Source of the DNA: an uncultured Methanosarcinales archaeon
GTDB lineage: Archaea; Nanobdellota; Nanobdellia; Woesearchaeales; GW2011-AR9
Length of the DNA: 64,000 nt
Direction: 5' to 3'
Assembly: GCA_964343575.1 (NCBI GenBank)
Contig: CAYFJV010000002.1
Coordinates: 395,809-459,808 of the forward strand
Part shown: positions 1,452-44,636 of the stretch, piece by piece
Layout of the letters: each line of letters begins with the position of its first letter
Position numbering within the stretch: position 1 is the first letter of the stretch
The notes under the pieces: model-generated
What the model saw: only the letters and a program-made list of their open reading frames with translations
Database searches by the model: none
What the model was told of the DNA's origin: nothing
Program-made: the position numbers and the translations under genes

Positions 1452-1835
1452 ATGACAGCACTTCATGACATTGCAGAAGAAATTCGTCGTTGCACTGCTT
1501 GCCCTCTTTGGAAGAATAGAACACTTGCAGTTCCAGGAGAAGGCAAGTTGGGTGTTGGGGTGGTTGTTCTTAAAACAAGTCCAAGTGAAGAAGATGATCG
1601 TAAGGGTTTGCCTTTCCAAGATCAAGAGAGTAGAGAAGCTCTAAAACAAAAGCTCGTAGAGAATGGTTTGCAAAGAAAAGATGTTTTTTTGACTACAAAA
1701 GTAAAATGCTGTCCTAAAGGAAGAGAAGCAACTCAAAAAGAGATAGCTACTTGTACAAAGTTATGGTTAGAAAAACAAAAAGAATGTTTGCAAAAACAAA
1801 GTAAGAGAAAAGAATTACGAGTTATTTCTATTTAG
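1452..1835 (+). CDS. uracil-DNA glycosylase family 4-like protein, C-terminally truncated with degenerate catalytic motifs (possible pseudogene or non-catalytic remnant)
   Basis: N-terminal CTACPLW...VPGEG...EED..G.PF...VKC.P motif order is collinear with family-4 UDG. GEGPG is replaced by KTSPS and PFVG by PFQD. The ORF stops after about 127 aa, so motif B (HPS) is absent. Confidence 0.5.
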   Translation: MTALHDIAEEIRRCTACPLWKNRTLAVPGEGKLGVGVVVLKTSPSEEDDRKGLPFQDQESREALKQKLVENGLQRKDVFLTTKVKCCPKGREATQKEIATCTKLWLEKQKECLQKQSKRKELRVISI

Positions 1836-4317
1836 AAGCGGAACCATACATTAGGTTTGCAGGAGCACCAAGTTCAACTTCTTGTCTTCGCACAGGAACC
1901 CTTTCTCTGTGATCTTCAAAGAGTTGGTCAAGATCATCTAGGGTTCCATAGTCTGGGAGCATTCTTGTTTCAGTTCCTCCCCTCGCATCTGCTTCAATTA
2001 CTTGGAGTGTTGGTTGAGTTCTCTCTCCAACAAGATCTTCTCCAGCGATAGGGTGGTCAATCTCGCCGATTTTTCTTCTTTGTGCTGCTAAGCGTATTCT
2101 TTCTCTTATAATGCCTGGAACAACTTGAGCACCAAGGGTAACTAGGCCAACTCCTCCAAGGCCAGTTGCCACTGATTTAAGCGCTGCTGGATCAAATGTT
2201 CCTGAATCTGCTCCAAGTGCTGCGACAGCAGCGACACCAACATAACCTGCCATCTCGGCAGCCTTTCTCAAACCAGAAGGTTCATCGGAGACATCTTCCT
2301 CAAATTCATGAGCATCAATAACTCCTTCTCGACGAAGGGGGGTCCTAGATTCTTCAAAGGCTTGCCAGTCAAAGAAATGACCTCCGTTCCCATCTTCTCT
2401 GAAAAACCTTCCGTGTTCGAGAAAAAAGGAGTATGGTACTTGAAACTCTCCTTCATGATCATGAACAGTAACTTGCCTACTCCTATCAACAACTTTCCTC
2501 AGTTTTGGACTCAATGTATCGTAAGATGTATTAAGCCTCGCTGTGGTCTCACTAACTTCTTCTCTTGCTGGACGACTAACTGGGACAACTGTCTTCAGAT
2601 CAATACGTGCTACTCTCGGATCTACTACCTCTGCTGCTGCTTCATCAAGTGGCTCAACAAATGCGACAGGAGCAGAAGGTTCTATTTCTACTTCTACAAC
2701 TGGTGCTCTTGGGGGAGTTATAGGATGTCTTCTTCTTCCTTTAAGCAGTCTTCTTGGTCCTTTTCTTCTCTTTTCTTCTGCTTTTCTTTGTTGGGAAGGA
2801 CTGAGGACGCTTTCTGTAAAGATTCTATGGACGGTTTCATCAGCTGAGCTTCGTCTGTTACAGGTTAAGAGCTCTTCTAGGTTGTAGGTTATGTTTCCTT
2901 CATTATTTTCAATTGCGATTCGGATGCCTGGGTGAGTGATTACAGTACGGTCCCCAAGATTAGAAGCTAATACGATAGCTCTTGCATGGGCCATATCTCC
3001 ACAGGCTTCAATGTCTGCTGGATTTTCATCCTTGACGAGATCTGAATACTGACGGACGGCATCTACGACCTCTCTTGAAAGATTTCCTTCTTCTATGTTT
3101 GTATTGCGGGTTAGTAAACGAAGTATGTTTCTTGCACGCTGCGCGCTTGTTCCATTCTCTCCTGCAAAACGAACACCAAACTCGGCCTCGTAACGAGCAT
3201 TTAGTGCAGCAGTGTTCACACCTTCAATAACATCGCAAACTGCATCATAGAGATTTCTTTGAACTGCTAAGTCTGCATCTGTAAGGGTTTGCACATCAGC
3301 AGCTCGCACCATTGGATATTCAAGAGGAGTTTCCAAAGCAGTATCAAGTTCTCTTTGTCTTTGATCATTTATCCTTGCTTTCTCTTCTCTTTGAGTAGCA
3401 ACTGCTTCTAGACCTTCAATATAATCTGCTTCTCGAGAAAGTGCTTCTCTCTGTCCTTCTGGACTGAGTACACCTCCGGTGTAAGGAGCAAAAGTTTCAT
3501 CAAAAGATCGTAAAAGTGCTTGTGTGTTTCTTCCTCTTCGAGAAGAAATCTGTTCACGGACACGCTCACGTAAAGCATCTAATTGAGGTGTAGTTGCATC
3601 AGTTAGTGCTCCCCCAGCATTGTTTAAAACCTGCTGCGCTGCTTCAATTCTTTGGTTCCAAGTCCAAGCGTAATCAACACCTTCTAATAGAGAAGCATAT
3701 TGTGTGTGTCGTGAGTGGAATTCTCTTGCACCTTCGCCCATACTAACTCCTGCGAAAATGTCATCAAGAATGTCAACTACCGGAGATCCCCGAGAATCTG
3801 CGCTTGTTATATTTGTAGGCTCTTGGGTAGCTGCTGTTTGGGTGTTATAAGAAGAAAAAGTATCTTCTAATTGATCGAGAAGTCTCTCTCTTCTCGCTTC
3901 ATTTGTTCGTAAACGTCCAATACGTGTTCTAGCTTCTTGATACAAAGCAGTAACATCACTGGAATTTGAAGTAAGATCGTAACGATTTAGAAGATCACTG
4001 ACTGCTTCTAGTCTATCTTCCCATTGCCAGGGCCTTCTTTGTGCAACAGTAGTGTAATCTCGTTCAACTTGCCCTTCTAAAGAATATTGTTCTTGCACTG
4101 CAGCAAATCTCTCTGTGTCTGCTGCTCTTCCTTGATACACTGCTTGAGCTAAACCAAGTACTGCTTCTCTCTCTTGAGTATTTGCTTGATACTGTGGTCT
4201 GCCCGGGAATGCTTTTGAAATCTCTCTAAAAGCTTCAAGGTCTCCAAGAGTTCCACCTTGGGGGCTGTCCTCTGCTGTCTCATCAAAGGTAGAGCCAAGG
4301 TCGTAGGTATCTTCCAT
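1828..4317 (-). CDS. large hypothetical protein (829 aa), Ala/Arg/Gln/Glu/Thr-rich, with a Pro-rich linker and a C-terminal glycine-zipper-like hydrophobic segment (probable membrane anchor)
   Basis: Single uninterrupted 2.5-kb ORF. Amino-acid and apparent GC composition are clearly different from neighbouring genes. The segment AGYVGVAAVAALGA...GLGGVGLVTLGAQVVPGII is hydrophobic. Confidence 0.55.
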   Translation of the reverse strand: MEDTYDLGSTFDETAEDSPQGGTLGDLEAFREISKAFPGRPQYQANTQEREAVLGLAQAVYQGRAADTERFAAVQEQYSLEGQVERDYTTVAQRRPWQWEDRLEAVSDLLNRYDLTSNSSDVTALYQEARTRIGRLRTNEARRERLLDQLEDTFSSYNTQTAATQEPTNITSADSRGSPVVDILDDIFAGVSMGEGAREFHSRHTQYASLLEGVDYAWTWNQRIEAAQQVLNNAGGALTDATTPQLDALRERVREQISSRRGRNTQALLRSFDETFAPYTGGVLSPEGQREALSREADYIEGLEAVATQREEKARINDQRQRELDTALETPLEYPMVRAADVQTLTDADLAVQRNLYDAVCDVIEGVNTAALNARYEAEFGVRFAGENGTSAQRARNILRLLTRNTNIEEGNLSREVVDAVRQYSDLVKDENPADIEACGDMAHARAIVLASNLGDRTVITHPGIRIAIENNEGNITYNLEELLTCNRRSSADETVHRIFTESVLSPSQQRKAEEKRRKGPRRLLKGRRRHPITPPRAPVVEVEIEPSAPVAFVEPLDEAAAEVVDPRVARIDLKTVVPVSRPAREEVSETTARLNTSYDTLSPKLRKVVDRSRQVTVHDHEGEFQVPYSFFLEHGRFFREDGNGGHFFDWQAFEESRTPLRREGVIDAHEFEEDVSDEPSGLRKAAEMAGYVGVAAVAALGADSGTFDPAALKSVATGLGGVGLVTLGAQVVPGIIRERIRLAAQRRKIGEIDHPIAGEDLVGERTQPTLQVIEADARGGTETRMLPDYGTLDDLDQLFEDHRERVPVRRQEVELGAPANLMYGSASK

Positions 4318-4571
4318 TTTTTATCTGAATTTGGTAGTAAATTGGTGGTTTTTGCCAGAAAAGCGCCTTCTTTTGCAAAAATCAGGCTTTTCAAAGAGCT
4401 TTCTTTTATAAATGTTTTCCTCAATGTCACTTTCAAGTAACAAAAAATCAAAAACCTTGCGAAAATGTCCTCTCTCGTTTATAAAGAGAAGGGGGGATGG
4501 GGCTAAAGAAACATTTAAATAGCCTCAATCATTGATTTTGACCTAGTTTTGTTTAAAAAGAGGCGTAAGAG

Positions 4572-5147
4572 ATGGAAGATAGTTTGTTTAGAGAGACGAT
4601 CGACTTTTTAGGAAGAGCCGGTCTTTATGATGTTATCTTACCCTTTCTTCTGGTTTTTACCGTTGTCTTTGCCATTCTTGAGAAGACCAAAATTTTTGGG
4701 ATTGGGAAATATGCTCACAAGGAAGGCGATGATGCGCTTACTACCAAAAAGAATCTTAACGCCACCTTCTCTTTCATTGCTGCTTTTATGGTGGTGGCTT
4801 CAACTCAGCTTGTAGCTGTGATTAACGAAGTGATTGCTCACGTTGCTTTGGTTTTAATCTTATGTGTTTGCTTTTTGATGTTGGTTGGTACCTTTCATCA
4901 TGATAAAGAGTTCAAATTTCATAAGAAGTATCCTGGCTGGATGGCTTTTTTTGTCATTGTAGCCTTTATTACTATTGTTGCTATCTTTTTGAATGCATTA
5001 GGTTGGCTTGATTGGCTAATTGATTATGCAGAAACTGTTGATGGTGAGTGGATCTCTGGTCTTGTTTTCCTTCTTATCACCATTGGGATTGTTGGTTTTA
5101 TTATTCAGGAACCTAAGCCAAAGAAGGAAGATGATAGTAGTGATTAG
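4572..5147 (+). CDS. small integral membrane protein (about 4 TM), paralog 1 of a tandem triplet
   Basis: Shared N-terminal motif G.YD..LPFLLVFTVVFAILEKT with the two following ORFs; four hydrophobic segments. Confidence 0.6.
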   Translation: MEDSLFRETIDFLGRAGLYDVILPFLLVFTVVFAILEKTKIFGIGKYAHKEGDDALTTKKNLNATFSFIAAFMVVASTQLVAVINEVIAHVALVLILCVCFLMLVGTFHHDKEFKFHKKYPGWMAFFVIVAFITIVAIFLNALGWLDWLIDYAETVDGEWISGLVFLLITIGIVGFIIQEPKPKKEDDSSD

Positions 5148-5230
5148 TGTTTGATTTGTTTAGTGTTAAAAAGAAAGATTAAAATATGCAAAATTCATTG
5201 GTGTTATTAAATTAAAAAGAGGTTGTTTCG

Positions 5231-5815
5231 ATGGCAAGTTTTACTGATTTGATTTTCCTGGCGCAGGATTCAGGTATCCTAGATTTTCTGCTTCCTTTCA
5301 TACTTGTTTTTGTAGTGGTTTTGGCTGCATCACAAAGAATACGGATGTTTGATACAAACCCCCGCTATAGGATAGTGATTGCGATAGTTGCCGCGACATC
5401 TTTTGTCGTTCCCCATATTTTAGGAACTTATCCCGTTGGCTATGATCCAGTAGAAGTTGTGTACACCGCCATGCCAAGTGTGGTGCTCCTATCTGTAGTT
5501 GTTCTTATGGCTCTTATCATCCTAGGAATGTTTGGGAATCCTGCAGACCAAGACAGTATTTTTACTTCAATACAACCTTATCTCACTGGGGTTTGCTTTT
5601 TGGTAGTCCTCTTTATTTTTGGTGAGGCATTGAATCTTTACCAGTATCCAGATTTTATGAACTGGTTTACTTCAGATTTGCTCGAGCTTGTCCTTGTGAT
5701 TGGAGTCTTTGCGCTTGTTGTTTATTTTATCACTGGAAACGGAGAGACTGCTGAAGAGAGAGGGAGAAGGAGACAAAGAGAGCAACAACAGCAACAACAA
5801 CAACGTAATCCATAG
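5231..5815 (+). CDS. small integral membrane protein, paralog 2 (poly-Gln C-terminus)
   Basis: Paralogous to 4572..5147 (LDFLLPFILVFVVVLAASQR); C-terminal RQREQQQQQQQRNP encoded by a CAA/CAG repeat. Confidence 0.6.
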   Translation: MASFTDLIFLAQDSGILDFLLPFILVFVVVLAASQRIRMFDTNPRYRIVIAIVAATSFVVPHILGTYPVGYDPVEVVYTAMPSVVLLSVVVLMALIILGMFGNPADQDSIFTSIQPYLTGVCFLVVLFIFGEALNLYQYPDFMNWFTSDLLELVLVIGVFALVVYFITGNGETAEERGRRRQREQQQQQQQRNP

Positions 5816-5856
5816 GGGGGGAGAAGTTATCTTTTATTATAGTAAGTTATTAACAA

Positions 5857-6429
5857 ATGGCAAGTGTACTTGAAGTTGGACTCTTTGGATTTTTTGATGT
5901 CATCTTTACGTGGCTTCTTATCTTTACTGTAGTCTTTGCTCTCTTTCAAAAAACAGGTTTTCTTGCTCCTAAGGGTTCGAAAACTAAGGGCGCACCAATC
6001 AATGCAATGATTGCAGTAGCAGTTGCTACTCTTGCAATCATTTATCCGCCTGTTGTTGAGCTGATTAATTTCATTGCACCTTGGTTTGTACTTGCCTTCA
6101 TCTTTTTAGTACTTCTTTTGATGGTCTTCAAGATGTTTGGTGTTGAGGACGATACTTTTGTTAAAGCAGTTGTTGATTACCCTGGACTTTTGTTTACTAT
6201 TATTGGGGTGAGCATTGTTATTTTAGTTGCAGGTTTTGGAGCTGTTTTTGGTCAAACGGTTTTAGAACTTTCTCCAAACGATGGAGATGCAGGAAGCATT
6301 GATGGAGAAGAGCTTGATGGCTTTGAGCAGAATGTAGTTGATATTATTTTTCACCCAGCAGTGCTTGGAATGGGATTGCTTATGACCATTGCCTTTTTTG
6401 CAGTGATCTTTTTGACAGGGGATGTATGA
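5857..6429 (+). CDS. small integral membrane protein, paralog 3
   Basis: Paralogous N-terminus (FFDVIFTWLLIFTVVFALFQKT); about 4 TM. Confidence 0.6.
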   Translation: MASVLEVGLFGFFDVIFTWLLIFTVVFALFQKTGFLAPKGSKTKGAPINAMIAVAVATLAIIYPPVVELINFIAPWFVLAFIFLVLLLMVFKMFGVEDDTFVKAVVDYPGLLFTIIGVSIVILVAGFGAVFGQTVLELSPNDGDAGSIDGEELDGFEQNVVDIIFHPAVLGMGLLMTIAFFAVIFLTGDV

Positions 6430-6449
6430 GGATGTGTGGGGTACTTTAG

Positions 6450-7157
6450 ATGGCACTTTTTCCTTCTTCTCCTGGACAGCAAGCAGGTGCTGGTGGCGCC
6501 TTTAAGGCAGACATTGCAACCGAACTGCAACATTTGCGTATGCAAGGACTTACTGGTGCTCAGATAGTACAAGAACTTAAAGCAAAAGGGTTTCATGAGG
6601 GACAGATTATGGCAGCAATAGATAAGTTGGATAATGGTGTTGGTTCTGCACCTTCTGCTCCGCCAATGCTGTCTCAAGGTGGAAGTCCAGGTGGTTTTTC
6701 TAGTCCTCCAAACATGGGTTCTGGTCCCGGAGCTTCTTTTCCTCCTGCTTCGGCTCCGATGCACATGGCTCCTTCTGCTCCTCCAATGAGTGGTGGTGCT
6801 TCTGGACAAATGCCTCCGGATGCACTTTATGATCGTATTGAAGAGATTGCTGAAGGGCTTATCGATGAGAAGTGGGATGAACTTATTGCAGAAGTAAAAA
6901 AGATCATTGCTTGGAAGGATAAGGTTGAAGAAGAGAACCATAAACTTAAGGCAGACATTGCTAAGCTTAAAGAAGATTTTAAGTTGCTGCATGAAGCAGT
7001 ACTTGGAAAGGTAGAAGAATATGATAAGCGCATGCAAGACGTTGGAGTTGAGCTCAAGGCGGTTGGTAAAGTCTTTAAGGATGTAGTTCCGGTTTTTACT
7101 GAGCAAGTGAAAGAATTGAAAGGAATTACCTCTGGTATGAGAGAAGCAAGGAAATAG
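6450..7157 (+). CDS. hypothetical protein with a Pro/Ser/Gly-rich linker and a C-terminal coiled coil; pilus-locus accessory protein
   Basis: ORF in the pilus-like cluster; low-complexity PSAPP repeats followed by a K/E heptad region. Confidence 0.5.
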   Translation: MALFPSSPGQQAGAGGAFKADIATELQHLRMQGLTGAQIVQELKAKGFHEGQIMAAIDKLDNGVGSAPSAPPMLSQGGSPGGFSSPPNMGSGPGASFPPASAPMHMAPSAPPMSGGASGQMPPDALYDRIEEIAEGLIDEKWDELIAEVKKIIAWKDKVEEENHKLKADIAKLKEDFKLLHEAVLGKVEEYDKRMQDVGVELKAVGKVFKDVVPVFTEQVKELKGITSGMREARK

Positions 7158-7160
7158 GAT

Positions 7161-7676
7161 TTAATGCTTGCGTGTGTGGTGCTCTGTCTGTGCATGATGA
7201 CTGTGGTTCTTACTTGGTGCTGTTTTATGATGGTGCATGGCTGTGTGCGTGCTTTTGTGTTTTTTGTTTCCCCCCTCTTTTACTTTGCCGACAAACTCCT
7301 GCCATTTGTGCTCAAAGAGTCGTTCAAGATCGTTTTGGGTAACGAAGTTGAGAGGATTCCAGAATTCTAAGTATTTTTTTATTACATCAAGTTCTTCTTT
7401 GCCTGCAGTTTGCTTGAGCTCTTTGATAATGAGATCAACTTTTTGACTTAGTTTTTCTTGCTGTTCTCGAAGTTCAAGTAATTCTTGATTAATATGACGA
7501 AGGTCTTTTTTGCTTTGAGCACCTTTGCGTAAACTCTCATTTTTTACAAGATCAAACTCTCGGCTTAGCTTGTTAATCTTAACTTCTAAGCCCTTGAGCC
7601 AAGCGTAGAGTTTACTCACAGGAAATGCTTCCTCATGTGGAGAAGTTTCTGGTTTTTTTCCCATGCCAAATGCCAT
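7161..7676 (-). CDS. hypothetical coiled-coil protein with a His-rich C-terminus
   Basis: ORF with a K/E/L heptad pattern; tail KKHKSTHTAMHHHKT...HSHHAQTEHHTRKH. Confidence 0.45.
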   Translation of the reverse strand: MAFGMGKKPETSPHEEAFPVSKLYAWLKGLEVKINKLSREFDLVKNESLRKGAQSKKDLRHINQELLELREQQEKLSQKVDLIIKELKQTAGKEELDVIKKYLEFWNPLNFVTQNDLERLFEHKWQEFVGKVKEGGNKKHKSTHTAMHHHKTAPSKNHSHHAQTEHHTRKH

Positions 7677-7812
7677 CTTTCTAGCCCTTAAGTAGTGTCT
7701 TCATTGAAGGAAACTATTTAAACAAATACGCTTTGTTTCTGTTTTGAGAAAAGAGGAAGAAATTAAGCTATTTATAGCTTGCGTTCGGAGATGATTAAAG
7801 AGATGGTAAGAG

Positions 7813-10131
7813 ATGGTAGATACTAATAAGCAGGTCAAAGCTTGTTTTGCCTTTGAGACTTATCACGAAGGAGAGAACAAAGTTTTGAAGGTTGCTATGG
7901 AAGAGTGTACTTTTCCTCCTTCTTTGGAGTACAGTGAGCGTTGCATGGGGAAGCTTATTGACATTCTGCTTAAGGTTTCGGGAATCACTACCATTGTTCT
8001 TTCTCAGCAACGTGAATACGAGTATGATTATCCACAAGTAATGATGCTTCAAGAGCTTGCAAGTCTTTTCAAAAAGCTGAACCATGAAGAGCGTTATCAG
8101 TATAACAAAATTGTGCTTGATCCTTTACATGAGCGTTATATTCGATCAAGTTTTGCTAAGTTTCAGCGCATTGTTTCTAAAGAACTTAAAGAAGATCCTT
8201 TAGCAGCTTATGTGTCTCTTAAGCGACTTGAGCGAAGAGAGAAAGAAAAACTTCACAATCTTGTTGATCAAAGGCATCAACAAAGTCAAGAGAAATTTGT
8301 TGCTATGCTTTTGCAAGCCTTGCATTTGGTAGAAGAGCTGCAAATTATTCAAAGTCTTTTACCTCATCTACGAGAGTACAAACATAGAGAGAGAAGTTTG
8401 TATGGGCTTGTCTTGCATCCTCTTACTCGGCCAGACTTTATGTACACCAAGTTGAACAGTGAGTTTCCTGAAAACGGAGAATTGCTTGAGAGTTATTCTT
8501 TTGGCCCGGAGAAGGAGAAGGTGGAAGTGAACATTTTTGGTTTTGAAGATAGTATCAAGAATGTTTATCATGTAACTCCTCCAGAGATGCGCTTGGGAGA
8601 AGAGGAGTATGAACTTCTTGATGATGCAAAGAGGATTCTTTCCGAGCACAAGCCAAGCCGAGAAGAATTTGTTGATCCAGAACGTATGCGTGAGGTGTTT
8701 TTTAACATAGGAAAAGATTTACTTCAAGATCTTGCAAAACATAAAGAGTTGCGCATGAGCGAGAAGAAAACAGAAATTCTTGCTCGTGCATTGTTGCGGT
8801 ACACTATAGGTTTTGGACTGATTGAAATTTTGCTCACTGATCCTAAGATTCAGGATGTGAACATTAACAGCCCTAATGGGAACTTACCGATTTTCATTGT
8901 GCATCAAGATTATGGTGACTGTGATACCAATGTCTATCCAACGCCAGCTGAGGTTGATAGTTGGGCAACAAAACTTCGTTTGTTGTCAGGAAGACCACTT
9001 GATGAAGCAAATCCAATTCTTGATACTGAAATCACTACAGCAAACTTTACTGCAAGGGTTTCAGCGGTCACTGCACCACTTGATCCTTTTGGGATGGGCT
9101 TTTCTTTTCGTCGCCACAGAGATCATCCTTGGACTTTTCCTCTTTACATACAGCCAAAGATTCGCATGATGAACTCACTTGCTGCTGGGCTGCTTAGTTT
9201 TCTTATTGATGGAAACGTTTCTTTACTCATTGCTGGGACGAGAAGCAGTGGAAAGAGTAGTTTTTTGGGGAGCGTGCTGGTTGAGATTATGCGACGTTAT
9301 CGTATCATTACTATTGAAGACACTTTAGAGTTGCCAAACCATTCTCTTCGCAAGCTTGGCTATAATGTTGAGTCACTCAAGGTGGGCTCAGCTTTGAGTA
9401 TTCAAAAGGGTTCAGAAGTTGATGCAAGCATTGGTATTCGAAGTACGCTTCGGCTTGGAGATAGTGCCTTGTTTGTTGGAGAAGTTCGAAGTAAGGAAGC
9501 TATTAGCTTGTATGAAGCAATGCGAGTTGGTGCTGCAGCAAATGTTGTTGCTGGGACCATTCATGCAGCTTCTCCTTATGGAGTTTATGATAGGGTGGTA
9601 AATGATATTGGTGTTCCTAAAACTTCCTTTAAAGCAACAGATATTATTGTGATTACTAACCCGGTAAGGAGCGCTTCTGGGATTAAAAAGCTGAAACGGG
9701 TGCTGCGTATCACTGAAATTAGGAAGGAATGGGAAAACGATCCGCTTGCTGAGGCTGCTTTTGTAGATTTGATGGTGTATAACCCGAAGACTGATGAGTT
9801 AGAGGTTACTAAAGATTTGATGAATGGAAACTCTGATATTTTGAAGCGTATTGCAGGAAGCATTCCTGACTTTGCAGGCGATTGGAACGCTGTTTGGGAA
9901 AATATCTTGCTTCGAGGGGATTGTAAGCAAGCAATTGTAGATGCTTCGGTGGAAGCTGAGAATCCCGATATGTTGGAAGCAGAGTTTGTGATTCGAGCAA
10001 ATGATAAGTTTCATCTTTTGAGTGATCAAGTAAAGCAAGAGACCGGAACTCTTGATCCTAAGCGTATTTTCTTTTTGTATAAAGAGTGGCTTCGAAAAGA
10101 GACGAAGAAGTACAAAAAGGGGCCCGTGTAG
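7813..10131 (+). CDS. type II/IV secretion system ATPase (archaeal FlaI/PilB/VirB11 family) with a roughly 250-aa N-terminal extension
   Basis: Walker A GTRSSGKSS, FlaI-like core (TIEDT.EL, GEVR), 772 aa; adjacent to a FlaJ/TadC-like gene. Confidence 0.8.
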   Translation: MVDTNKQVKACFAFETYHEGENKVLKVAMEECTFPPSLEYSERCMGKLIDILLKVSGITTIVLSQQREYEYDYPQVMMLQELASLFKKLNHEERYQYNKIVLDPLHERYIRSSFAKFQRIVSKELKEDPLAAYVSLKRLERREKEKLHNLVDQRHQQSQEKFVAMLLQALHLVEELQIIQSLLPHLREYKHRERSLYGLVLHPLTRPDFMYTKLNSEFPENGELLESYSFGPEKEKVEVNIFGFEDSIKNVYHVTPPEMRLGEEEYELLDDAKRILSEHKPSREEFVDPERMREVFFNIGKDLLQDLAKHKELRMSEKKTEILARALLRYTIGFGLIEILLTDPKIQDVNINSPNGNLPIFIVHQDYGDCDTNVYPTPAEVDSWATKLRLLSGRPLDEANPILDTEITTANFTARVSAVTAPLDPFGMGFSFRRHRDHPWTFPLYIQPKIRMMNSLAAGLLSFLIDGNVSLLIAGTRSSGKSSFLGSVLVEIMRRYRIITIEDTLELPNHSLRKLGYNVESLKVGSALSIQKGSEVDASIGIRSTLRLGDSALFVGEVRSKEAISLYEAMRVGAAANVVAGTIHAASPYGVYDRVVNDIGVPKTSFKATDIIVITNPVRSASGIKKLKRVLRITEIRKEWENDPLAEAAFVDLMVYNPKTDELEVTKDLMNGNSDILKRIAGSIPDFAGDWNAVWENILLRGDCKQAIVDASVEAENPDMLEAEFVIRANDKFHLLSDQVKQETGTLDPKRIFFLYKEWLRKETKKYKKGPV

Positions 10132-10184
10132 GGGCTGCAAGGTAAGTTTTTATACTCAAGAATATTGTTTTTAGCTGTTTTAGG

Positions 10185-12401
10185 GTGAAGATGAGTGTGG
10201 ATCCTTGCGTGGGAAAAAAGAGAATGACAGATGCCTATCAAGACTTGATTGTCAAGTACAAAGAAAAAATCAAGCAAGAGTTTGGAGAACAAGCAGCTAA
10301 CCCTGCAAATCCTCGAAACAAAATTAGTTCTACTGAGTACGAACAGTTCAAACAAGAACTTTTTCCTACCCATTACTCTCTTTATGAGAAAGCCTGTAAC
10401 TATTCTGAGCAACTTTTCAAGATGAAGGTGGGAGGAAAACAGGCAGAGAAGATTCAGAAGTATCTTGATGTTTGCCACCTTAATGTTACTCCTTCTGGAG
10501 TTGTTGCTCTCTCTTTTGTACTTCCTCTTTTGCTTATGTTCTTTGGATCAATTATTTCCTTTATTGTCTTTCAAATGTTCTTTTTTGTCATCTTTTTTAT
10601 GGTGGCTGGACTTTTGCTGATTCCTGCGCTTCAAAAAGTTCCTGAATTTTTGGGAAACTCTTGGAGAATGAAAGCTAGTAACCAAATGGTACAAAGTATC
10701 TTTTATTTGGTAACTTACATGCGTCATACTTCTAACTTAGAGCGAGCAGTGGAGTTTGCAGCAGAGCATCTGAGCCCCCCTCTTTCTCTTGATTTTCGAA
10801 AGATTTTGTGGGATACTGAGACTGCAACTTATCCCAACATTCGTGCAGCAGCAGATGCTTATTTAGAATCTTGGAAAGAATGGGACAAAGATTTTGTTGA
10901 AGCATTTCATTTGATTGAAGCCTCTTTGTTTGAGCCTTCTGAGGAACGTAGACTCACACTTCTTGACAAGTCCCTTGATGTTATTTTGGATGGTACTTAT
11001 GAGAATATGTTACAGTATGCACACAGCTTGAAAAATCCAATGATGATGCTTAACATGCTTGGTATTGTGCTTCCTATCTTGGGTTTAGTTATCTTACCTC
11101 TGGTAGTGAGTTTTATGAGCGGAGATGAGACCAGTGCGTTTACAATGGCTGTCTACATTGCAACGCTTTACAATGTGACCTTGCCAATTTCTGTTTATTA
11201 TCTTGGAAAAGTGATTCTTTCTAAAAGACCGGCTGGTTATGGCCATGAAGATATTGCAAAGCAAGGGCCACTTAAAAGGCTTCAAAATGTTATTGTTCCG
11301 ATCACAAGTAGTTTTAAAATTGCAATAAATCCTCTCTACTTTAGCCTCACCATTCTTATGATTACTTTTGCCATTGGTTTTAGTCCGCTTCTTTTGCACA
11401 TGCTTAATCCAACTTTTGATATCCAAAACGCTGATGGAACCATGCAGTTTTTAGGCTATATTTGTGGTCCCACAACTCCTAATTGTTCTCCTTCTGAGAT
11501 GATTGGACCTTATGGACTTGGTGCATCGCTTCTCTCTTTAGTAGTTATTGCTGGACTTGGTTTGGCAATTGGATCTTATTACTCTTTGCGCTCGAAGAAT
11601 GTCATTAAGATACGAACGAGAACAAAACAGCTTGAGGAAGAATTTTCTTCTGCGCTTTTTCAGCTTGGTAACCGCTTAGGAGATGGTCTTCCAGCAGAGA
11701 TTGCTTTTGGTAAAGTTGCTCAGACCATGAAAGGCTCGACTTCAGGAAACTTTTTTGCAGTTGCTGAGAAGAATATTACTACGCTTGGTATGGGTCTTGA
11801 AGAAGCTCTTTTTGATCGAAAAGTAGGAGCAGTTGTGCAGTTTCCAAGTAAAGTAATCGAATCTTCTATGAAAGTATTGATTGAGAGTAGTAAGCGAGGA
11901 CCACGCATAGCTGCGCAAGCGCTTCTTTCCATGTCACGTTATATTAAAGAGATCCATCGTGTTGAAGAACGTCTTAAAGATTTAATGGCAGAAATTGTTG
12001 GAAGTATGAAATCTCAGGTAAATTTTTTGACACCAGCCATTGCTGGAATTGTGGTTGGAATTACTTCTATGATCTCTTTAGTTTTGACAAAGTTGAGTGG
12101 ACAGTTGGCGCAATATAGTGATGCTGGCGCAAATGCAGGCTTTGCAGACATGCTCACCATCTTTGGTGTAGGAATTCCTACTTTTCACTTTCAGATCATT
12201 GTAGGGGTTTACATTGTGCAGCTAGCTTACATTTTGACGGTGCTTGCTAATGGTATTGAGAATGGTGCAGATAAGTTAGGAGAGCGTTACGAACTGGGAA
12301 AGGCAATGACCAGAAGTACTTTGCTCTATTGCTTTATTGCGGGTTTTGTGATTTTACTTTTTAATATGTTTGCTGGAGCGGTGTTGATAAACACTCTTTG
12401 A
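10185..12401 (+). CDS. archaeal pilus/archaellum assembly platform membrane protein (FlaJ/TadC, T2SS-F domain family)
   Basis: 738-aa polytopic membrane protein immediately downstream of the secretion ATPase; organisation matches the duplicated T2SSF domain layout. Confidence 0.7.
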   Translation: MKMSVDPCVGKKRMTDAYQDLIVKYKEKIKQEFGEQAANPANPRNKISSTEYEQFKQELFPTHYSLYEKACNYSEQLFKMKVGGKQAEKIQKYLDVCHLNVTPSGVVALSFVLPLLLMFFGSIISFIVFQMFFFVIFFMVAGLLLIPALQKVPEFLGNSWRMKASNQMVQSIFYLVTYMRHTSNLERAVEFAAEHLSPPLSLDFRKILWDTETATYPNIRAAADAYLESWKEWDKDFVEAFHLIEASLFEPSEERRLTLLDKSLDVILDGTYENMLQYAHSLKNPMMMLNMLGIVLPILGLVILPLVVSFMSGDETSAFTMAVYIATLYNVTLPISVYYLGKVILSKRPAGYGHEDIAKQGPLKRLQNVIVPITSSFKIAINPLYFSLTILMITFAIGFSPLLLHMLNPTFDIQNADGTMQFLGYICGPTTPNCSPSEMIGPYGLGASLLSLVVIAGLGLAIGSYYSLRSKNVIKIRTRTKQLEEEFSSALFQLGNRLGDGLPAEIAFGKVAQTMKGSTSGNFFAVAEKNITTLGMGLEEALFDRKVGAVVQFPSKVIESSMKVLIESSKRGPRIAAQALLSMSRYIKEIHRVEERLKDLMAEIVGSMKSQVNFLTPAIAGIVVGITSMISLVLTKLSGQLAQYSDAGANAGFADMLTIFGVGIPTFHFQIIVGVYIVQLAYILTVLANGIENGADKLGERYELGKAMTRSTLLYCFIAGFVILLFNMFAGAVLINTL

Positions 12402-12525: not shown

Positions 12526-12774
12526 GTGGGTTTGGAGAATCTTGTAGAAGATTTTGTAACAGGGGCATCGCATTTATATTATGGCCCTTACGGAAATTAT
12601 GCTATTGCTCTAACTGCAGCAGTGCTTGCCTCGCAAGTTGTTTACGGTATTGGTGCTTATCGTCAACTAAGAGAAGAAGGAGAGATTAAAGGAACTGGAC
12701 TTTGCTTTGCTCTCAATCCTGTTGGTGCTGGTGCTGCTTATCTTTGTCATTATCTTCATGGAGATAAAAGTTAA
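12526..12774 (+). CDS. small hypothetical membrane protein
   Basis: 82-aa ORF with hydrophobic segments; an inverted repeat lies in its upstream region. Confidence 0.3.
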   Translation: MGLENLVEDFVTGASHLYYGPYGNYAIALTAAVLASQVVYGIGAYRQLREEGEIKGTGLCFALNPVGAGAAYLCHYLHGDKS

Positions 12775-13535
12775 ATATAGCTGGGAACTATGGGTCTTCC
12801 AGCTTCCTTTTCTTCTAGGCGAGCAGAAACAGTTCTAAAGTCAGTTGTGTAAAGCTCAAAAAGAAAGGGGTATGCTTCAGAAGGGAGCGCAGTTCTTCTT
12901 CTTTCTCTTACTTCAAAGAGTCTCTTAAACTTGTCAATGACAAGTGTGCAAAAGGGAGCCAAAAAAAGGTTGGCCCCGATAAGATAGGGAAGTGCATCCA
13001 TTGTTTTTTCAGGAGGAACTCCCATTATTTCGTTAACAAGAGGATAAACTACTGCTGTGAAAGCCGCTCCACTTAATCTATCTGCTAAATTAAGCCTAGT
13101 TGGTTCGAAACAATCAAGCACAGTTTCTCTTGCCGCAATTTCCTCTCTTGTAACTCCAAAAGCTCCCCTAATTACTTTATTAAAAGCGTTGTAGACAATT
13201 CCCGATGGAATATAACTGAGTAATGCTCCTGCGCGACTTCTCAACATCTCTGGCAAAGAAAAACCCTTCGCTAACTCTAGTCCTCCAAAGGCAATGCCAT
13301 AAAAAACGGCGCTACCAGCAATTGCAGCAGCATTATCTTTCGCGACGTTAAGTGGATCTTTTCTGATATCATCCAAAGTTCCAATAGCGTATACGAAAGG
13401 AACTACTGCCCAATCTTGTCCCCAATGACAAGCCTCTTTTGCAATTGTTCTGGGGCCTATTACGGCAGCAGTTGCAGAAAGGTTAGCTGCAACATTTGGA
13501 TCTACAGGTTGATTTAACAGCTCATCTAAAGACAT
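12771..13535 (-). CDS. hypothetical protein
   Basis: 254-aa ORF, no recognised motif. Confidence 0.45.
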   Translation of the reverse strand: MSLDELLNQPVDPNVAANLSATAAVIGPRTIAKEACHWGQDWAVVPFVYAIGTLDDIRKDPLNVAKDNAAAIAGSAVFYGIAFGGLELAKGFSLPEMLRSRAGALLSYIPSGIVYNAFNKVIRGAFGVTREEIAARETVLDCFEPTRLNLADRLSGAAFTAVVYPLVNEIMGVPPEKTMDALPYLIGANLFLAPFCTLVIDKFKRLFEVRERRRTALPSEAYPFLFELYTTDFRTVSARLEEKEAGRPIVPSYI

Positions 13536-13707: not shown

Positions 13708-13817
13708 TGGGGCTGCAGGGATTTGAACCCTGAACACCTAGATTTCAAAAACATTCACAAAAATTAGCGAATGCGCCTACTTCAGTCTAGTGCTCTTCCA
13801 GATTGAGCTACAGCCCC
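13708..13817 (-). tRNA. tRNA-Phe (anticodon GAA) with an intron of about 36 nt at the canonical 37/38 position
   Basis: Manual fold: acceptor GGGGCTG/CAGCCCC, D arm GCTC/GAGC, anticodon stem CTAGA/TCTAG, loop CU-GAA-G, T arm CAGGG-TTCAAAT-CCCTG, discriminator A. 43 nt lie between the anticodon-stem strands, which equals 7 loop nt plus about 36 intron nt. Confidence 0.65.
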
Positions 13818-13923: not shown

Positions 13924-16533
13924 TTATTCTGAGCAACTCTTGTACATCTGCCCGTTCTCGTCAATCTTGAGTGTACAAGAAGAACCGGTGCTTGCTTCCA
14001 TGCTTTCTGAGGATGGAGTAACCACAGTCTCAGAGACAGACATCGTACTTGTTTGAACTCCTTGCTCAACAGATCCTTGAGCAACTGCAACACTTACTGT
14101 TGTTTGGGAAACTGAGGTTTCTGAAGAAGAAACTGCCTCAGCATCTCCTGCAGCAGAGCTCGCTGCATTCTTTTGCTCAGTTGCCTCGTCTGTAGTAAGC
14201 ACTTGTTCATAACGACAGTTATCTCGGTAGATGGTGACTCCCTTACAGCCAAGTTTGTAAGCCTCTTCGTAGAGCTCCTTGGTTTCTTCTACAGTAAAGT
14301 CTTCTGGAGCGTTTGCAGTTTTAGAAATGCTACTGTCTGTCCAGCGTTGCACCGCCGCCTGTACTTTAATGTGGTCAAGCGGAGTCATCTGCATTGCTGT
14401 AATGAAGTACTCTGGAAGGTTTCCTTCAGCATCTTGGTATTTCTCTGCAAGTGGAATTTTTACCTTATGAAAACCAAGTCTACTTTGCCTGAAAAACTCA
14501 AAAGCGTAGTAAGGTTCAATCCCAGTAGAAGTTCCAAGCATAGTCCCTACAGTTCCAGTGGGTGCTTGCGTGGTTAAAGTGACATTACGAATCCCTTTCT
14601 CACGTACCTGTTGGCGAACGTCTTCTGGCAGGGTTCTCATAAAGCCGCTTTCTAAGAATTTCTCGGCAACAAATTCAGGGAAAGCTCCTTTCTCTGCTGC
14701 AAGTTCAGCTGAAGCTTTGTACATCTCGCTACAAATTGCTTCGTAAATTTTGTCAACGACTTGTAGGCTTTCTGGACTTCCGTATCGTAGACGTAATTTG
14801 ATTAACATTTCTCCTAAACCAAGAGTTCCTCCGCCAACCCTTCGCTCACTCATTTGATTATCTTCGTTAGCTTTGAAATGATATGGTGTTGCATCAATAA
14901 CATTGTCTAGGAAACGAGTAAGCACTCTTGCTGCTTTGCGTAGTTCTTCCCAATTGATTTCGTAGAGTGGTCCTTGCTCGTCTTGACCAATTTGCTTAAG
15001 GAAAGAAGCAAGATACAAGTGACCTAAGTTACAAACTCCCCAACCAGGTAATCCTTGTTCTCCACAAGGGTTAGTACAAATGATTGGATTAAAGTACCAA
15101 GAGTTACTCATTTTGTTATAACGCTCCATGAAAACAACTCCTGGTTCTGCACTTGCGTGAGCGCTACTAATGATTTGGTCCCAAAGATCTTTTGCTCGAA
15201 CAGTATTGAACACTTTAGTAGGATAGCCTTTCTGTTTCCAAGCATCTAAGCTTCCATCCCACTCTGCATTGTAGACTTCTTTTTCAACTGCTTCGTAATC
15301 TGGAAATTCTAAAGGCCAGTCTCCATCACGAGCAAGAGTTTCCATAAATTTGTCAGAAACAAGAACAGAAACATTAGCATTCTCAAGTACGCCTTTTTTA
15401 CGTTTAGCAGTGATAAACTCAAGCACATCTGGGTGCCAATCGTGTAGCATGAGCATTAATGCTCCTCGACGACTTCCTCCTTGCTCAATAAGACCAGTTC
15501 CATAAGAATAGATCCCCCCCCAAGATACAGCCCCAGATGATTTTCCATGTACTCCTCGAACATAGGCGTATCGTGGACGTAGGCTAGATAAATTGATACC
15601 AACTCCTCCGCCCCGACTAAAAATCTCGGTCATTTGGTAAAGTGTTCCTTTAATGATTCCTTCTCTACTATCTTTTGGACTTGGAAGCACGTAGCAATTG
15701 AAGAGAGTAAGATTTTTTACGTAGGAAGTATCGCCTTTATCATTTGCTCCAGTCATAATTCTTCCAGCAGGTTGAATGTGTTTTTTCTGAAGCTGTTCAT
15801 AAAACTCTGCTGCCCACTTCTCTTGTAACTCTTCAGTCTTTTCTACCTTTGCAATTCCTTTAGCAACCCTCTTGTGTGCATCTTTGATAGATTCAAGGGG
15901 TTTGTCACATTTCCAAAGAGATTGAGTGAACTCAAAGTTATTCGCCTCATCAGCGTAAAGTCCAGTAATCATATGTAAGGTGACTTGATCTCCTACAATT
16001 GATTTTACAATCCCTAAGTCTTTTTTAGGATATTTTGGGTCTTCTTTACTAATCACTACTAGAAGATCCCCTCGATCAATGTGCTTTCTTTTTGCTTTTA
16101 GAGAGTATCGATCTAGAAAGATAGAACGACCAAGTTCATCAAAGGCAGTTGATTCTTCTAGAATTTTGTTTGCTTGTTCAGAAAGGTAAATACTGTGCTC
16201 AGCAAGATGAAGAAGATCTTTATTTTGGCTTTGTTGCTCCTGGCTTGGCTTGGTGTTTTCGGTGCCGTGTTGAGAAGTGTTTGCACTTTCCCCTTTCATC
16301 TTTTGTTGGATGGCCATGTCAATGAGACATTCAAAGACTTCTACTGCTGGAATTGTGTGGGAGAATTTCTCTGAGATAAGAGATATAATCGCTGTTGCAG
16401 CGTTTTGAGCTTCTTGCTCAGAATATTCTCCTTGCTCTAAAAGTCTTCGAGCAATGGCAGCACCGGTCTCAGCGCTGTTAAAATCAATAATAGAACCGTC
16501 TTTTTTTCTTACTTGACTAATCATATCTACCAC
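13924..16533 (-). CDS. nrdJ: ribonucleoside-triphosphate/diphosphate reductase, class II (adenosylcobalamin-dependent) with an N-terminal ATP-cone and a Ser/Thr/Val-rich low-complexity C-terminal tail
   Basis: ATP-cone-like N-terminus; active-site region ICTNPCGEQ (Cys/Glu of the class I/II RNR finger loop); 869 aa. Confidence 0.8.
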   Translation of the reverse strand: MVDMISQVRKKDGSIIDFNSAETGAAIARRLLEQGEYSEQEAQNAATAIISLISEKFSHTIPAVEVFECLIDMAIQQKMKGESANTSQHGTENTKPSQEQQSQNKDLLHLAEHSIYLSEQANKILEESTAFDELGRSIFLDRYSLKAKRKHIDRGDLLVVISKEDPKYPKKDLGIVKSIVGDQVTLHMITGLYADEANNFEFTQSLWKCDKPLESIKDAHKRVAKGIAKVEKTEELQEKWAAEFYEQLQKKHIQPAGRIMTGANDKGDTSYVKNLTLFNCYVLPSPKDSREGIIKGTLYQMTEIFSRGGGVGINLSSLRPRYAYVRGVHGKSSGAVSWGGIYSYGTGLIEQGGSRRGALMLMLHDWHPDVLEFITAKRKKGVLENANVSVLVSDKFMETLARDGDWPLEFPDYEAVEKEVYNAEWDGSLDAWKQKGYPTKVFNTVRAKDLWDQIISSAHASAEPGVVFMERYNKMSNSWYFNPIICTNPCGEQGLPGWGVCNLGHLYLASFLKQIGQDEQGPLYEINWEELRKAARVLTRFLDNVIDATPYHFKANEDNQMSERRVGGGTLGLGEMLIKLRLRYGSPESLQVVDKIYEAICSEMYKASAELAAEKGAFPEFVAEKFLESGFMRTLPEDVRQQVREKGIRNVTLTTQAPTGTVGTMLGTSTGIEPYYAFEFFRQSRLGFHKVKIPLAEKYQDAEGNLPEYFITAMQMTPLDHIKVQAAVQRWTDSSISKTANAPEDFTVEETKELYEEAYKLGCKGVTIYRDNCRYEQVLTTDEATEQKNAASSAAGDAEAVSSSETSVSQTTVSVAVAQGSVEQGVQTSTMSVSETVVTPSSESMEASTGSSCTLKIDENGQMYKSCSE

Positions 16534-33658: not shown

Positions 33659-34123
33659 ATGAAAACAAAAAAAATTAATCTTAAAAGAGCTCTTGGTATC
33701 GGGCTTGTTGCTTACATTGCTTCTTTTTTCATTGGCATCTTAACTGCGGTGCTTGTTGGTATTAATTTGGGAGTTGAGAGTGAAGTTCCGGCCTTAGTTT
33801 GGCAAATTGGTTTAGTAAGTACTTTGTTGATTGGCCTTGTTTTTGGTGGATGGTATTTTGCTGGAAAGAAAACTGGAAAAGGATTACAGGAAGGAGGTTT
33901 GCTTGGTCTTTGTTTTATCGCCGTTGGATTTGTAATAGATTTTGTGCTTATTATCCCTTACATTATTGTTAGTGGTGCGCCCTCAGATGTTTGGGCTTAC
34001 TATTTGAGTCCTTACTTTTGGGGATCTTTGTTTTTGCTGCTTGTTGCTACTAGCTTTGTTGGTTGGTGGAAAGAAAAGCAGGGCAAGAAATGGCTCGGTT
34101 TTATGTTTTCTTCCAAATCCTAG
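33659..34123 (+). CDS. hypothetical polytopic membrane protein
   Basis: 154 aa, 4 hydrophobic segments. Confidence 0.45.
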   Translation: MKTKKINLKRALGIGLVAYIASFFIGILTAVLVGINLGVESEVPALVWQIGLVSTLLIGLVFGGWYFAGKKTGKGLQEGGLLGLCFIAVGFVIDFVLIIPYIIVSGAPSDVWAYYLSPYFWGSLFLLLVATSFVGWWKEKQGKKWLGFMFSSKS

Positions 34124-44597: not shown

Positions 44598-44636
44598 TGC
44601 CGTCCAACTAAAAACTTTTTCTCAAGTAATAATCCC

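Follow-up and report, generated by a model that had tools for sequence, protein, structure and literature searches.

DPANN archaea need physical contact with a host, and the molecules that mediate it are largely unknown. CpaF/TadC loci with coiled-coil proteins (CCPs) were reported to be conserved in cluster-2 DPANN (Woesearchaeota, Pacearchaeota, Nanoarchaeota, Nanohaloarchaeota, Aenigmarchaeota and Undinarchaeota), the CCPs (e.g., NAR1_03220 and NAR1_01690) were read as sigma-1-like attachment proteins, and the pilins PilA and FlaF were reported only in the other, second DPANN locus (Hamm et al., 2024, Nat Commun 15:6449, PMC11291902). In archaeal ATPase/TadC operons, pilin genes are often unlinked; type IV pili of subclade 4F (Halobacterial/Methanocella) have an intracellular coiled-coil protein, arCOG07564, and pilins were unidentifiable for nanoarchaeal ATPases of the clade with coiled-coil-encoding halobacterial loci (Makarova et al., 2016, PMC4858521).

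The locus analysed here lies in a 64-kb window (the whole stretch of DNA that was analysed) of a ~485-kb contig from a Woesearchaeota-type (DPANN) genome. ORF calls placed all seven genes at the coordinates in Table 1. Compared by description, it is most likely one of the CCP/CpaF/TadC loci of cluster-2 DPANN and probably the pilin-less 'Locus 2' of Hamm et al. (2024), with which it shares a secretion ATPase and a probable TadC-like platform adjoining coiled-coil genes in a cluster-2 DPANN genome. The published CCPs were taken as attachment proteins, whereas the coiled-coil proteins CC1 and CC2 of this locus carry no hydrophobic or transmembrane segment or signal peptide and look cytoplasmic. 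Three paralogous polytopic proteins (P1, P2 and P3), unmentioned in the main text of that paper (PMC11291902), make up, in this locus, the block with the tightest linkage to the coiled-coil genes. Subclade 4F loci are similar by gene content in their ATPase/TadC pair and intracellular coiled-coil component, but they carry genes for pilins of the PilA family and for S-layer-like or adhesin proteins, and P1-P3-like genes are undescribed there. With the archaellum the locus has in common the ATPase superfamily and probably the platform type of FlaI/FlaJ and, as with FlaX or FlaC/D/E, accessory coiled-coil proteins of the cytoplasm encoded in one operon with the motor; it differs in a far more diverged platform with a predicted extracellular insert and in P1-P3, which have no archaellum counterpart. 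A CpaF core (E 7e-15) and a probable T2SSF-type platform recall the bacterial Tad/Flp motor (CpaF, TadB/TadC), but a single fused platform of ~725 aa is found here rather than TadB plus TadC, and genes for Flp pilin, TadV peptidase, TadZ and secretin are absent.

Table 1. Features of the seven-gene locus (window coordinates).
Feature	Coordinates	Strand	Description	Basis
P1	4572..5147	+	191 aa, polytopic in the membrane; founder of the paralogue family and its best-conserved member	ORF call
P2	5231..5815	+	194 aa paralogue; basic, Gln-rich C-terminal tail	hhalign to P1
P3	5857..6429	+	190 aa paralogue; N-terminal motif with FTW for LPF	BLASTP, hhalign
CC1	6450..7157	+	235 aa soluble coiled-coil protein	Heptad-like segment; orthologues adjoining P3
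CC2	7161..7676	-	171 aa soluble coiled-coil protein; divergent from ATPase	Heptad-like segments
Secretion ATPase, GspE2/FlaI-family	7813..10131	+	772 aa	Pfam T2SSE and PDB matches
Platform protein, probably very diverged T2SSF-like (GspF/PilC/TadC/FlaJ-type)	10185..12401	+	738 aa from GTG	AlphaFold and Foldseek

The original prediction of a seven-gene locus agreed overall with these data (ORFs, coordinates, paralogy and ATPase), though it had not given the minus strand of CC2. Of its interpretation, the motor core and the lack of a recognisable pilin stood; the archaellum likeness, the paralogues as filament subunits and the significance attached to protein size did not.

Homologues came from MAGs of Woesearchaeota, Nanoarchaeota and 'Nanoarchaeia'. 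Relatives with ATPases as little as ~50% identical kept the gene order P1-P2-P3-CC1-CC2-ATPase(-platform) while flanking genes differed, and no homologue of the window's upstream 829-aa gene or downstream 254-aa gene was present in any related locus. P1-P3 (all plus), CC1, CC2 and ATPase (plus) followed in this order in 15 of 15 platform-anchored loci extending upstream to P1, and the full seven-gene cluster recurred in L084, L086, L087 and L088, independently sampled deeper relatives with ATPases 50–53% identical. A P2 orthologue lay directly 3' of P1 in all 26 related loci with P1, the position of P3 after P2 was conserved, CC1 orthologues adjoined P3 (E 1e-43 to 5e-78), and CC2 orthologues always lay between CC1 and the ATPase. 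The CC1 gene was on the minus strand in most relatives and on the plus strand in the window, L004 and L085. The ATPase-platform spacer was variable and turned over while the adjacency of P1-P3, CC1-CC2 and ATPase survived. About half of the platform-anchored loci had no ATPase within 10 kb, and the P1-P3 block was >10 kb from any ATPase in L083, in L085 (with CC1) and in L089 (with CC1 and CC2). Median identity to orthologues was 73% for the ATPase, 68% for the platform and 64% for the adjacent class II ribonucleotide reductase (RNR); both motor proteins are thus more conserved than the neighbouring RNR, and few non-housekeeping gene sets in the analysis are as conserved as this locus. In one relative, an intein was located inside the ATPase catalytic core; inteins typically sit in strongly constrained proteins.

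By its sequence matches, the 772-aa product belongs to the GspE2/FlaI family of secretion ATPases and is intact; a catalytic core (~217-662) is flanked by ~215 extra N-terminal and ~110 extra C-terminal residues. Pfam T2SSE was matched at 4e-13 (49.2 bits, cut-off 24.9). The best solved-structure match was A. fulgidus GspE (afGspE, PDB 2OAP/2OAQ; query 217-662 against chain residues 23-440, E 9e-32), followed by FlaI (4ii7, 7e-17) and CpaF (7e-15). The Walker A (GTRSSGKSS), Asp-box (IEDT) and Walker B (GEVR) motifs aligned with their 2oap counterparts, whereas the N- and C-terminal extensions are extra relative to afGspE; no homologue of either was detected. FlaI was the top NCBIfam match (5e-33), at 114.6 bits against the equivalog cut-off of 550 (NF058587). 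An enlarged FlaI-like ATPase had been proposed, of which size and family hold. The significance attached to the size is not supported, as subsystem-specific N-/C-terminal extensions have been described as usual in non-archaellum archaeal TFF (type-IV-filament superfamily) ATPases, where the extra domains were proposed to be docking sites for subsystem-specific accessory proteins (Sivabalasarma & Albers, 2026, bioRxiv 10.64898/2026.04.22.720090).

The platform protein matched no Pfam, NCBIfam or PDB sequence model. Its homologues number >4000 (best 120 at 65–79% identity); among orthologues, T2SSF was the Pfam family matched most often (5/18, best 3.5e-4, all sub-threshold), and some JGI annotations name orthologues 'TadB'. 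Orthologues are 723–729 aa and their alignment begins only at residues 13-18 of the window protein, so the true start is probably M14 at 10224 (~725 aa). In the AlphaFold model (pLDDT 76, pTM 0.70), two cytoplasmic helical bundles and ~8 transmembrane helices were predicted, with an extra extracellular, beta-rich insert (~361-443) containing invariant C427/C434; no internal duplication was detectable. The top Foldseek match was the PilC model 3jc8_Ca (prob 0.77, E 0.13), and local matches to OutF (5nbg) and EpsF (2vmb/3c1q) had prob 0.98–1.00 at E >= 1, with a TM-score per target of 0.63–0.76 and rmsd of 2.8–3.7. Because the model matches GspF/PilC cytoplasmic domains, the protein is most likely a very diverged T2SSF-type platform. 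For the label 'FlaJ-like', no sequence model gave confirmation; its basis is fold similarity together with the sub-threshold T2SSF matches of orthologues.

P1, P2 and P3 had been described as tandem paralogues, and pairwise comparison agreed. BLASTP gave 5e-10 (P1/P3), 2e-5 (P1/P2) and 0.1 (P2/P3), and hhalign of orthologue alignments gave 99.6% (P1/P2, E 4e-24), 98.6% (P1/P3, 5e-16) and 97.4% (P2/P3, 1e-11); by these profile-profile probabilities (97–99.6%) they are true paralogues, far beyond chance. Four transmembrane helices had been assigned to each, but the hydropathy scan and the AlphaFold model both gave five per paralogue. A shared N-terminal motif had been proposed; in the form G..D..LPF.L.F..V.A it was present in P1 and P2, and P3 departs from it (Table 1); G17, L23, P24, F25, L27 and F29 were >=90% conserved across the family. 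P1 has 1356 homologues and 2111 clusters at 50% identity, nearly all of 175–200 aa. No Pfam, NCBIfam or PDB match was obtained for P1, P2 or P3, and for P1 no family of Pfam, NCBIfam or PHROGs exceeded its threshold. The family is undescribed and without known relatives, and looks like an accessory membrane module.

The two coiled-coil proteins of the original prediction were each confirmed by heptad-like segments. CC1 begins with a small helical domain at the N-terminus, continues through a linker rich in Pro/Gly/Ser/Ala (~65-125) and ends in a coiled coil (~126-235; heptad-like segment 143-187), with weak coiled-coil matches only in Pfam. CC2 has heptad-like segments at 14-91 and a His-rich C-terminal tail.

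These data support a locus with a motor of the type-IV-filament superfamily at its centre, consisting of a GspE2/FlaI-family ATPase and a probable, diverged T2SSF-like platform. On balance, we lean towards one conserved, TFF-derived envelope machine of Woesearchaeota-type DPANN, comprising motor, coiled-coil scaffold and P1-P3 module, with its substrate encoded elsewhere. P1-P3 and CC1/CC2 may be tied to the motor, the linkage of all seven genes being conserved. The ATPase would form a hexamer that docks onto the platform at its cytoplasmic bundles and drives it by ATP hydrolysis. Around the ATPase, CC1 and CC2 would serve as a cytoplasmic scaffold or regulator, probably via the lineage-specific N-/C-terminal extensions of that enzyme, in a role analogous to archaellum FlaX or FlaC/D/E or to the subclade 4F coiled-coil protein. 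P1-P3 would be a hetero-oligomeric membrane module beside the platform (collar, stator or alignment element) and not filament subunits. The substrate would be proteins with class-III signals encoded elsewhere in the genome, and the output a surface filament or secretion activity, plausibly for host contact; a host-attachment role is conjecture. Weighing against such a machine are the P1-P3 blocks distant from an ATPase, the half or so of platform-anchored loci with no ATPase within 10 kb, a platform assignment from a pLDDT-76 model with Foldseek E-values >= 0.13, the lack of a pilin or prepilin peptidase within the 64-kb window, and the origin of all related loci in a single lineage, by which their synteny is in part inherited and not independently maintained.

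A FlaFind-like pattern was applied to all window ORFs, those of the locus included, and found no class-III signal peptide; the sole full-length candidate (33659-34123) is a 3-TM protein and not pilin-like, in agreement with the earlier statement that the locus has no recognisable pilin. No pilin was found among the genes between ATPase and platform in 20 related loci. No Peptidase_A24 match was obtained among the scanned ORFs, and the window encodes no 5-9-TM protein of a size suited to a prepilin peptidase (PibD/FlaK/EppA); the related loci have no such peptidase either. It is unlikely, though worth weighing, that the motor is repurposed and pilin-independent, acting with heterotrimeric P1-P3 and the coiled-coil pair as a DPANN-specific device of Woesearchaeota-type genomes for a membrane task other than pilus assembly, near-essential to the reduced cell, such as formation or gating of an intercellular bridge or host conduit, import of DNA, lipid, metabolite or macromolecule, or envelope remodelling. 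Consistent with this are the absence of pilins from the window and 89 related loci, the variable ATPase-platform spacer included, conservation above RNR, which is unusual for surface-appendage genes, the platform's extra extracellular insert with invariant cysteines, three polytopic proteins that belong to no described TFF system, and cognate pilins of nanoarchaeal ATPases that Makarova et al. (PMC4858521) did not find either. However, archaeal pilin genes are often unlinked from ATPase/TadC operons (PMC4858521), PilA/FlaF are reported in a second DPANN locus (PMC11291902), and the pilin search in the organism's own genome spans 64 kb.

Somewhat less probable still is that P1-P3, perhaps with CC1/CC2, form an independent membrane system beside the ATPase, for example a truncated AT3 relative or a small transporter. 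The blocks of L083, L085 and L089 that lie far from any ATPase would fit, as would a mere neighbourhood in small syntenic genomes that all belong to one lineage. Pfam Acyl_transf_3 (PF01757) was matched by P1 at 16.5 bits and recurrently by its orthologues at about 24–31 bits (E 2e-7 to 1e-5), in the orthologues always at profile positions 128-260 of 326. The best orthologue reached 30.7 bits, under the gathering score of 31, and the matches cover central helices only (positions 128-262 overall). AT3 catalytic residues belong to the N-terminal part of the domain, which is uncovered, and an AT3 acyltransferase identity for P1-P3 is not supported. Orthologues can be expected to align in one register, so that its consistency adds no independent evidence. 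A match of the paralogues to an unrelated transporter family had been named as what would overturn the original prediction; no such match arose, the sub-threshold Acyl_transf_3 matches and a single, probably chimeric DcuC fusion being all that was seen. Foldseek gave no transporter or enzyme fold for P1, and P1-P3 stayed next to CC1-CC2-ATPase in relatives with ATPases only ~50% identical, although both the outer flanks and the spacer between ATPase and platform turned over, which also argues against independence.

It is very improbable that P1-P3 are non-canonical pilin- or archaellin-like subunits, cut by a peptidase after the invariant Gly and extracted and polymerised by the motor, as had been suggested. 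Gly17, with an acidic position at +3 and a hydrophobic helix of ~20 residues after it, loosely recalls the G|xxxxE pilin N-terminus, pilins are commonly tandem paralogues, and the locus has no other pilin. Yet the residues that precede the Gly are net acidic or neutral, a Lys/Arg at -2 is not conserved in the P1-P3 family, and the FlaFind-like scan was negative, in line with the earlier observation that the paralogues lack class-III signal peptides. The first helix is followed by four more, with short basic loops between. The P1 AlphaFold model (pLDDT 78) is an all-helical membrane bundle of five long helices without a globular head domain, Foldseek searches of PDB and BFVD with it returned no match, pilins included, and extraction of a five-helix membrane protein into a fibre is implausible. 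A divergent archaellum (motility) locus, suggested by the top FlaI match and by coiled-coil proteins that recall FlaC/D/E and FlaX, is the least credible reading and is refuted for this locus, which is not an archaellum, because the defining FlaH, FlaF, FlaG and archaellin genes are missing from locus and window, the FlaI score also being far below its cut-off and afGspE, not FlaI, the closest solved relative.

For the DPANN, two targets are defined. One is an undescribed family, of ~2100 clusters at 50% identity, which contributes three paralogous membrane proteins to the tightly linked unit; the other is the coiled-coil pair, which appears to be cytoplasmic. Both refine the published picture of a 'type-IV-pilus-like locus' and call into question external attachment fibres as a reading of the coiled-coil proteins. 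Were the machine to prove pilin-independent, the TFF superfamily would gain a new functional branch.

The seven open reading frames named in the original prediction were all recovered at their predicted positions and are listed in the table below; CC2, whose orientation the prediction did not mention, lies on the minus strand. P1, P2 and P3 are paralogous polytopic membrane proteins of ~190 aa, CC1 and CC2 are soluble coiled-coil proteins, and the two motor genes encode a 772-aa GspE2/FlaI-family ATPase and a 738-aa T2SSF-like platform protein. ATPase and platform are adjacent in the window, with 53 nt between the ATPase stop and the annotated platform GTG. Because platform orthologues are 723–729 aa long and align only from residue 13–18 of the window protein, the true platform start is probably M14 at 10224. 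On sequence reading, candidate TATA-like boxes were placed ahead of P1 (TTTAAATA, 4514–4521; 51 nt upstream) and ahead of the ATPase (TTTATA, 7771–7776; 37 nt upstream).

Features of the window, with median identity of orthologues to the window protein across 15 loci
Feature	Coordinates	Strand	Median identity	Remarks
829-aa gene	1828–4317	-		upstream flank
P1	4572–5147	+	51%
P2	5231–5815	+	37%
P3	5857–6429	+	40%
CC1	6450–7157	+	49%
CC2	7161–7676	-	50%
ATPase	7813–10131	+	73%
Platform	10185–12401	+	68%	annotated start GTG
254-aa gene	12771–13535	-		downstream flank
tRNA with intron	13708–13817	-		110 nt
Class II ribonucleotide reductase (RNR)	13924–16533	-	64%
Secreted protein	23466–24473	+		candidate adhesin
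Secreted protein	24597–26969	+		candidate adhesin
Low-GC stretch	44000–54200
Tyrosine recombinase	53280–54128			end of low-GC stretch

Related loci were collected via the platform protein (82 loci, L001–L082, flanks limited to 10 kb), and their open reading frames were called and searched with the window proteins. Every platform-anchored locus extending upstream to P1 carried P1, P2, P3, CC1, CC2 and ATPase, with P1–P3 and ATPase on the plus strand; all six genes were present in 15 loci, and several more ended inside the P1–ATPase block at the 10-kb flank limit. The platform followed the ATPase at a distance of 0.05–9 kb, and about half of the platform-anchored loci had no ATPase within 10 kb. 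The spacer between the two genes held unrelated TrmB, NifS-like cysteine desulfurase, toxin-antitoxin and DHH phosphoesterase genes (e.g., L001 7906–10001, L009 5596–9959, L054 875–10007) and is an insertion hot spot. Seven further loci (L083–L089) were sampled via divergent P1 homologues, with ATPase identity of 50–53% and platform identity of 42–56%. The compact seven-gene cluster was kept in four of these (L084, L086, L087 and L088); L089 had P1–P3, CC1 and CC2, and L085 had P1–P3 and CC1, both with no nearby ATPase, and L083 had P1–P3 only. The gene content kept and lost across the related loci makes P1-P2-P3-CC1(-CC2) the tightest unit, usually joined to the ATPase, with the platform more loosely attached. 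Paralogue copy number was variable: L084 (123–2551) carried four tandem paralogues (two P1-like, one P1/P2 intermediate and one P3), and L060 (211–2587) an extra P2-like copy. Only the window, L004 and L085 had CC1 on the plus strand; all other related loci had it on the minus strand together with CC2, which points to a local single-gene inversion. None of the 89 related loci contained a homologue of the flanking 829-aa or 254-aa gene, and the two proteins matched no Pfam or NCBIfam family; by these searches they are lineage-specific orphans outside the conserved cluster.

The ATPase matched Pfam T2SSE, and its nearest solved structure was A. fulgidus GspE (2oap, 9e-32, residues 217–662), followed by FlaI and CpaF. 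Its Walker A (GTRSSGKSS), IEDT and GEVR motifs lined up with the 2oap template. It carries ~215 extra N-terminal and ~110 extra C-terminal residues; according to a recent survey, extensions of this kind are typical of non-archaellum archaeal type IV filament (TFF) ATPases and may be where subsystem-specific accessory proteins dock (10.64898/2026.04.22.720090). The orthologue in L010 (5025–8813) is 1262 aa long and contains a LAGLIDADG intein of ~497 aa (Pfam Intein_splicing and LAGLIDADG_3) that immediately follows the GEVRS catalytic motif, at a point equivalent to residue ~560 of the window ATPase; its exteins are 68–70% identical to the window ATPase.

The platform had no match in Pfam, NCBIfam, a PDB phmmer search or a PDB profile search built from 18 orthologues. 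T2SSF was the commonest Pfam match among those orthologues (5 of 18, best 3.5e-4, sub-threshold), and hhalign of the N-terminal half against the C-terminal half for a T2SSF-type duplication was not significant on a shallow alignment (Neff 1.7). The AlphaFold model (pLDDT 76, pTM 0.70) comprised cytoplasmic helical bundles at ~152–285 and ~475–600, each followed by transmembrane helices, and a beta-rich insert at ~361–443 in which C427 and C434 are invariant. Its top Foldseek match was the PilC model of the T4aP machine (3jc8_Ca), and the GspF cytoplasmic domains of OutF and EpsF were matched with Foldseek probabilities of 0.98–1.00, TM-scores per target of 0.63–0.76 and rmsd of 2.8–3.7 Å. We conclude that the protein is, by predicted fold and not by sequence thresholds, most probably a very diverged T2SSF platform.

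BLASTP between the three membrane paralogues was weak (P1/P3 5e-10; P1/P2 2e-5, N-terminus only; P2/P3 0.1). Paralogy was settled decisively at the profile level, where hhalign of orthologue-group profiles gave probabilities of 99.6% for P1/P2 (E 4e-24), 98.6% for P1/P3 (5e-16) and 97.4% for P2/P3 (1e-11). The family is sizeable and homogeneous: a three-sequence profile recovered 1356 proteins and a 100-sequence profile 2111 clusters at 50% identity, with lengths of 175–200 aa in almost every case. Its signature places G-x2-D-x2-LPF-x-L-x-F within the first hydrophobic helix; L-x-K-x4-G and a conserved Asn come next. Hydropathy gave five hydrophobic segments in each protein, and the AlphaFold model of P1 (pLDDT 78, pTM 0.51) was an all-helical bundle with helices at 18–39, 60–76, 78–108, 121–143 and 158–178 and a short hairpin at 44–58. 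The N-terminus is acidic and the loops at 40–59 and 109–120 and the C-terminal tails are basic, and this charge pattern suggests an N-out/C-in topology. A 365-aa metagenomic protein, P0243, is a tandem P1-like and P2-like fusion; it was set aside as topology evidence since it occurs on one contig only and conflicts with the odd number of transmembrane helices.

Pfam, NCBIfam and PHROGs yielded no meaningful relatives of the family, and neither did a PDB profile search or Foldseek against PDB and BFVD. The sole recurrent database match, Acyl_transf_3, was rejected: all hits were below the 31-bit cut-off and partial (profile positions 128–262 of 326). A DcuC match (1e-37) was confined to P0379, a metagenomic protein of 275 aa whose first ~135 residues are P1-like and whose remainder is the C-terminal half of YfcC/DcuC (Pfam DcuC); a chimera from assembly or a rare fusion is the probable explanation, rather than family homology. 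A split-platform origin was likewise discarded, as hhalign of the family against the platform showed no relation.

In CC1, a Pro/Gly/Ser-rich linker connects a small helical domain at the N-terminus with a heptad region at the C-terminus; CC2 combines a heptad region with a His-rich tail. Both lack hydrophobic segments and signal peptides and are most simply placed in the cytoplasm. A scaffold or regulator role would fit, by analogy with FlaX, FlaC/D/E or arCOG07564; an external attachment fibre fits less well.

As originally predicted for the locus, no pilin is visible: a FlaFind-like scan detected none with a class-III signal in the 64-kb window. None of the membrane proteins in the window qualified as a prepilin peptidase, the window held no second T2SSE or platform gene, and no pilins lay in the ATPase–platform spacers of 20 related loci. 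Cluster-2 DPANN, including Woesearchaeota, are reported to have two conserved type-IV-pilus-like loci; CpaF, TadC and coiled-coil proteins are encoded in both, pilins in Locus 1 only (Hamm et al., 2024, PMC11291902). By description, the window locus fits the pilin-less one. The three membrane paralogues are unmentioned in the main text of that paper. Nanoarchaeal members have been noted in the ATPase subclade whose halobacterial loci encode coiled-coil arCOG07564, placed in 4F loci (section 17), and their cognate pilins were not identifiable (Makarova et al., 2016, PMC4858521).

We lean towards a TFF-derived envelope machine with P1–P3 and CC1/CC2 as accessory parts and with a substrate encoded elsewhere. 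A pilin-independent, repurposed motor, with which the pilin-free spacers and window also agree, is an unlikely competitor. That P1–P3 are merely unrelated neighbours of the motor, with which the loci lacking a nearby ATPase agree, is somewhat less probable again. That P1–P3 are filament subunits is very improbable. Sequence inspection and the FlaFind-like scan upheld the predicted lack of class-III signal peptides, and the unrelated transporter family that the original prediction had considered did not appear, no known transporter family being matched; P1–P3 thus belong neither to the pilins nor to any known transporter family. An archaellum is scarcely credible, since the ATPase, FlaI-related as it is, scored 114.6 bits against a FlaI equivalog threshold of 550 and its closest solved relative is GspE.

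The window is archaeal, with an intron-containing tRNA and GC of ~40%. This tRNA (Rfam 59.4 bits; missed by ARAGORN) has the 254-aa gene on one side and the class II RNR on the other; several related loci likewise have the RNR downstream of their platform gene. The two adjacent secreted proteins, ~11 kb from the locus, have N-terminal signal or lipobox-like sequences and PKD, bacterial cadherin-like, Big_9 and He_PIG domains, and are candidate surface adhesins. The low-GC stretch (0.31–0.35 against a background of ~0.40) encodes a Macro-domain protein, methyltransferase, TrmB regulator, NAD synthase, DUF1152 and S51 peptidase, and is a possible integrated element or genomic island.

Among the matches listed, homologues of the locus proteins came nearly all from MAGs labelled Woesearchaeota, Nanoarchaeota, Nanoarchaeia or 'archaeon'. 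The best 120–150 protein-search matches, all labelled Woesearchaeota/Nanoarchaeota, included no non-Woesearchaeal DPANN homologue; named members of ten sampled clusters were likewise labelled, and relatives recovered by genome scan were all at least 61% identical. The Nanobdellota attachment-organelle paper and complete-genome preprint make no mention of pili or of the locus genes. Given the similar loci described by Hamm et al. (2024) and Makarova et al. (2016), the locus type is already known in outline. Three things appear new: the recognition that P1–P3 form a conserved membrane module of paralogues belonging to no known family, the probable cytoplasmic character of the coiled-coil proteins, and the unusual conservation of the motor.
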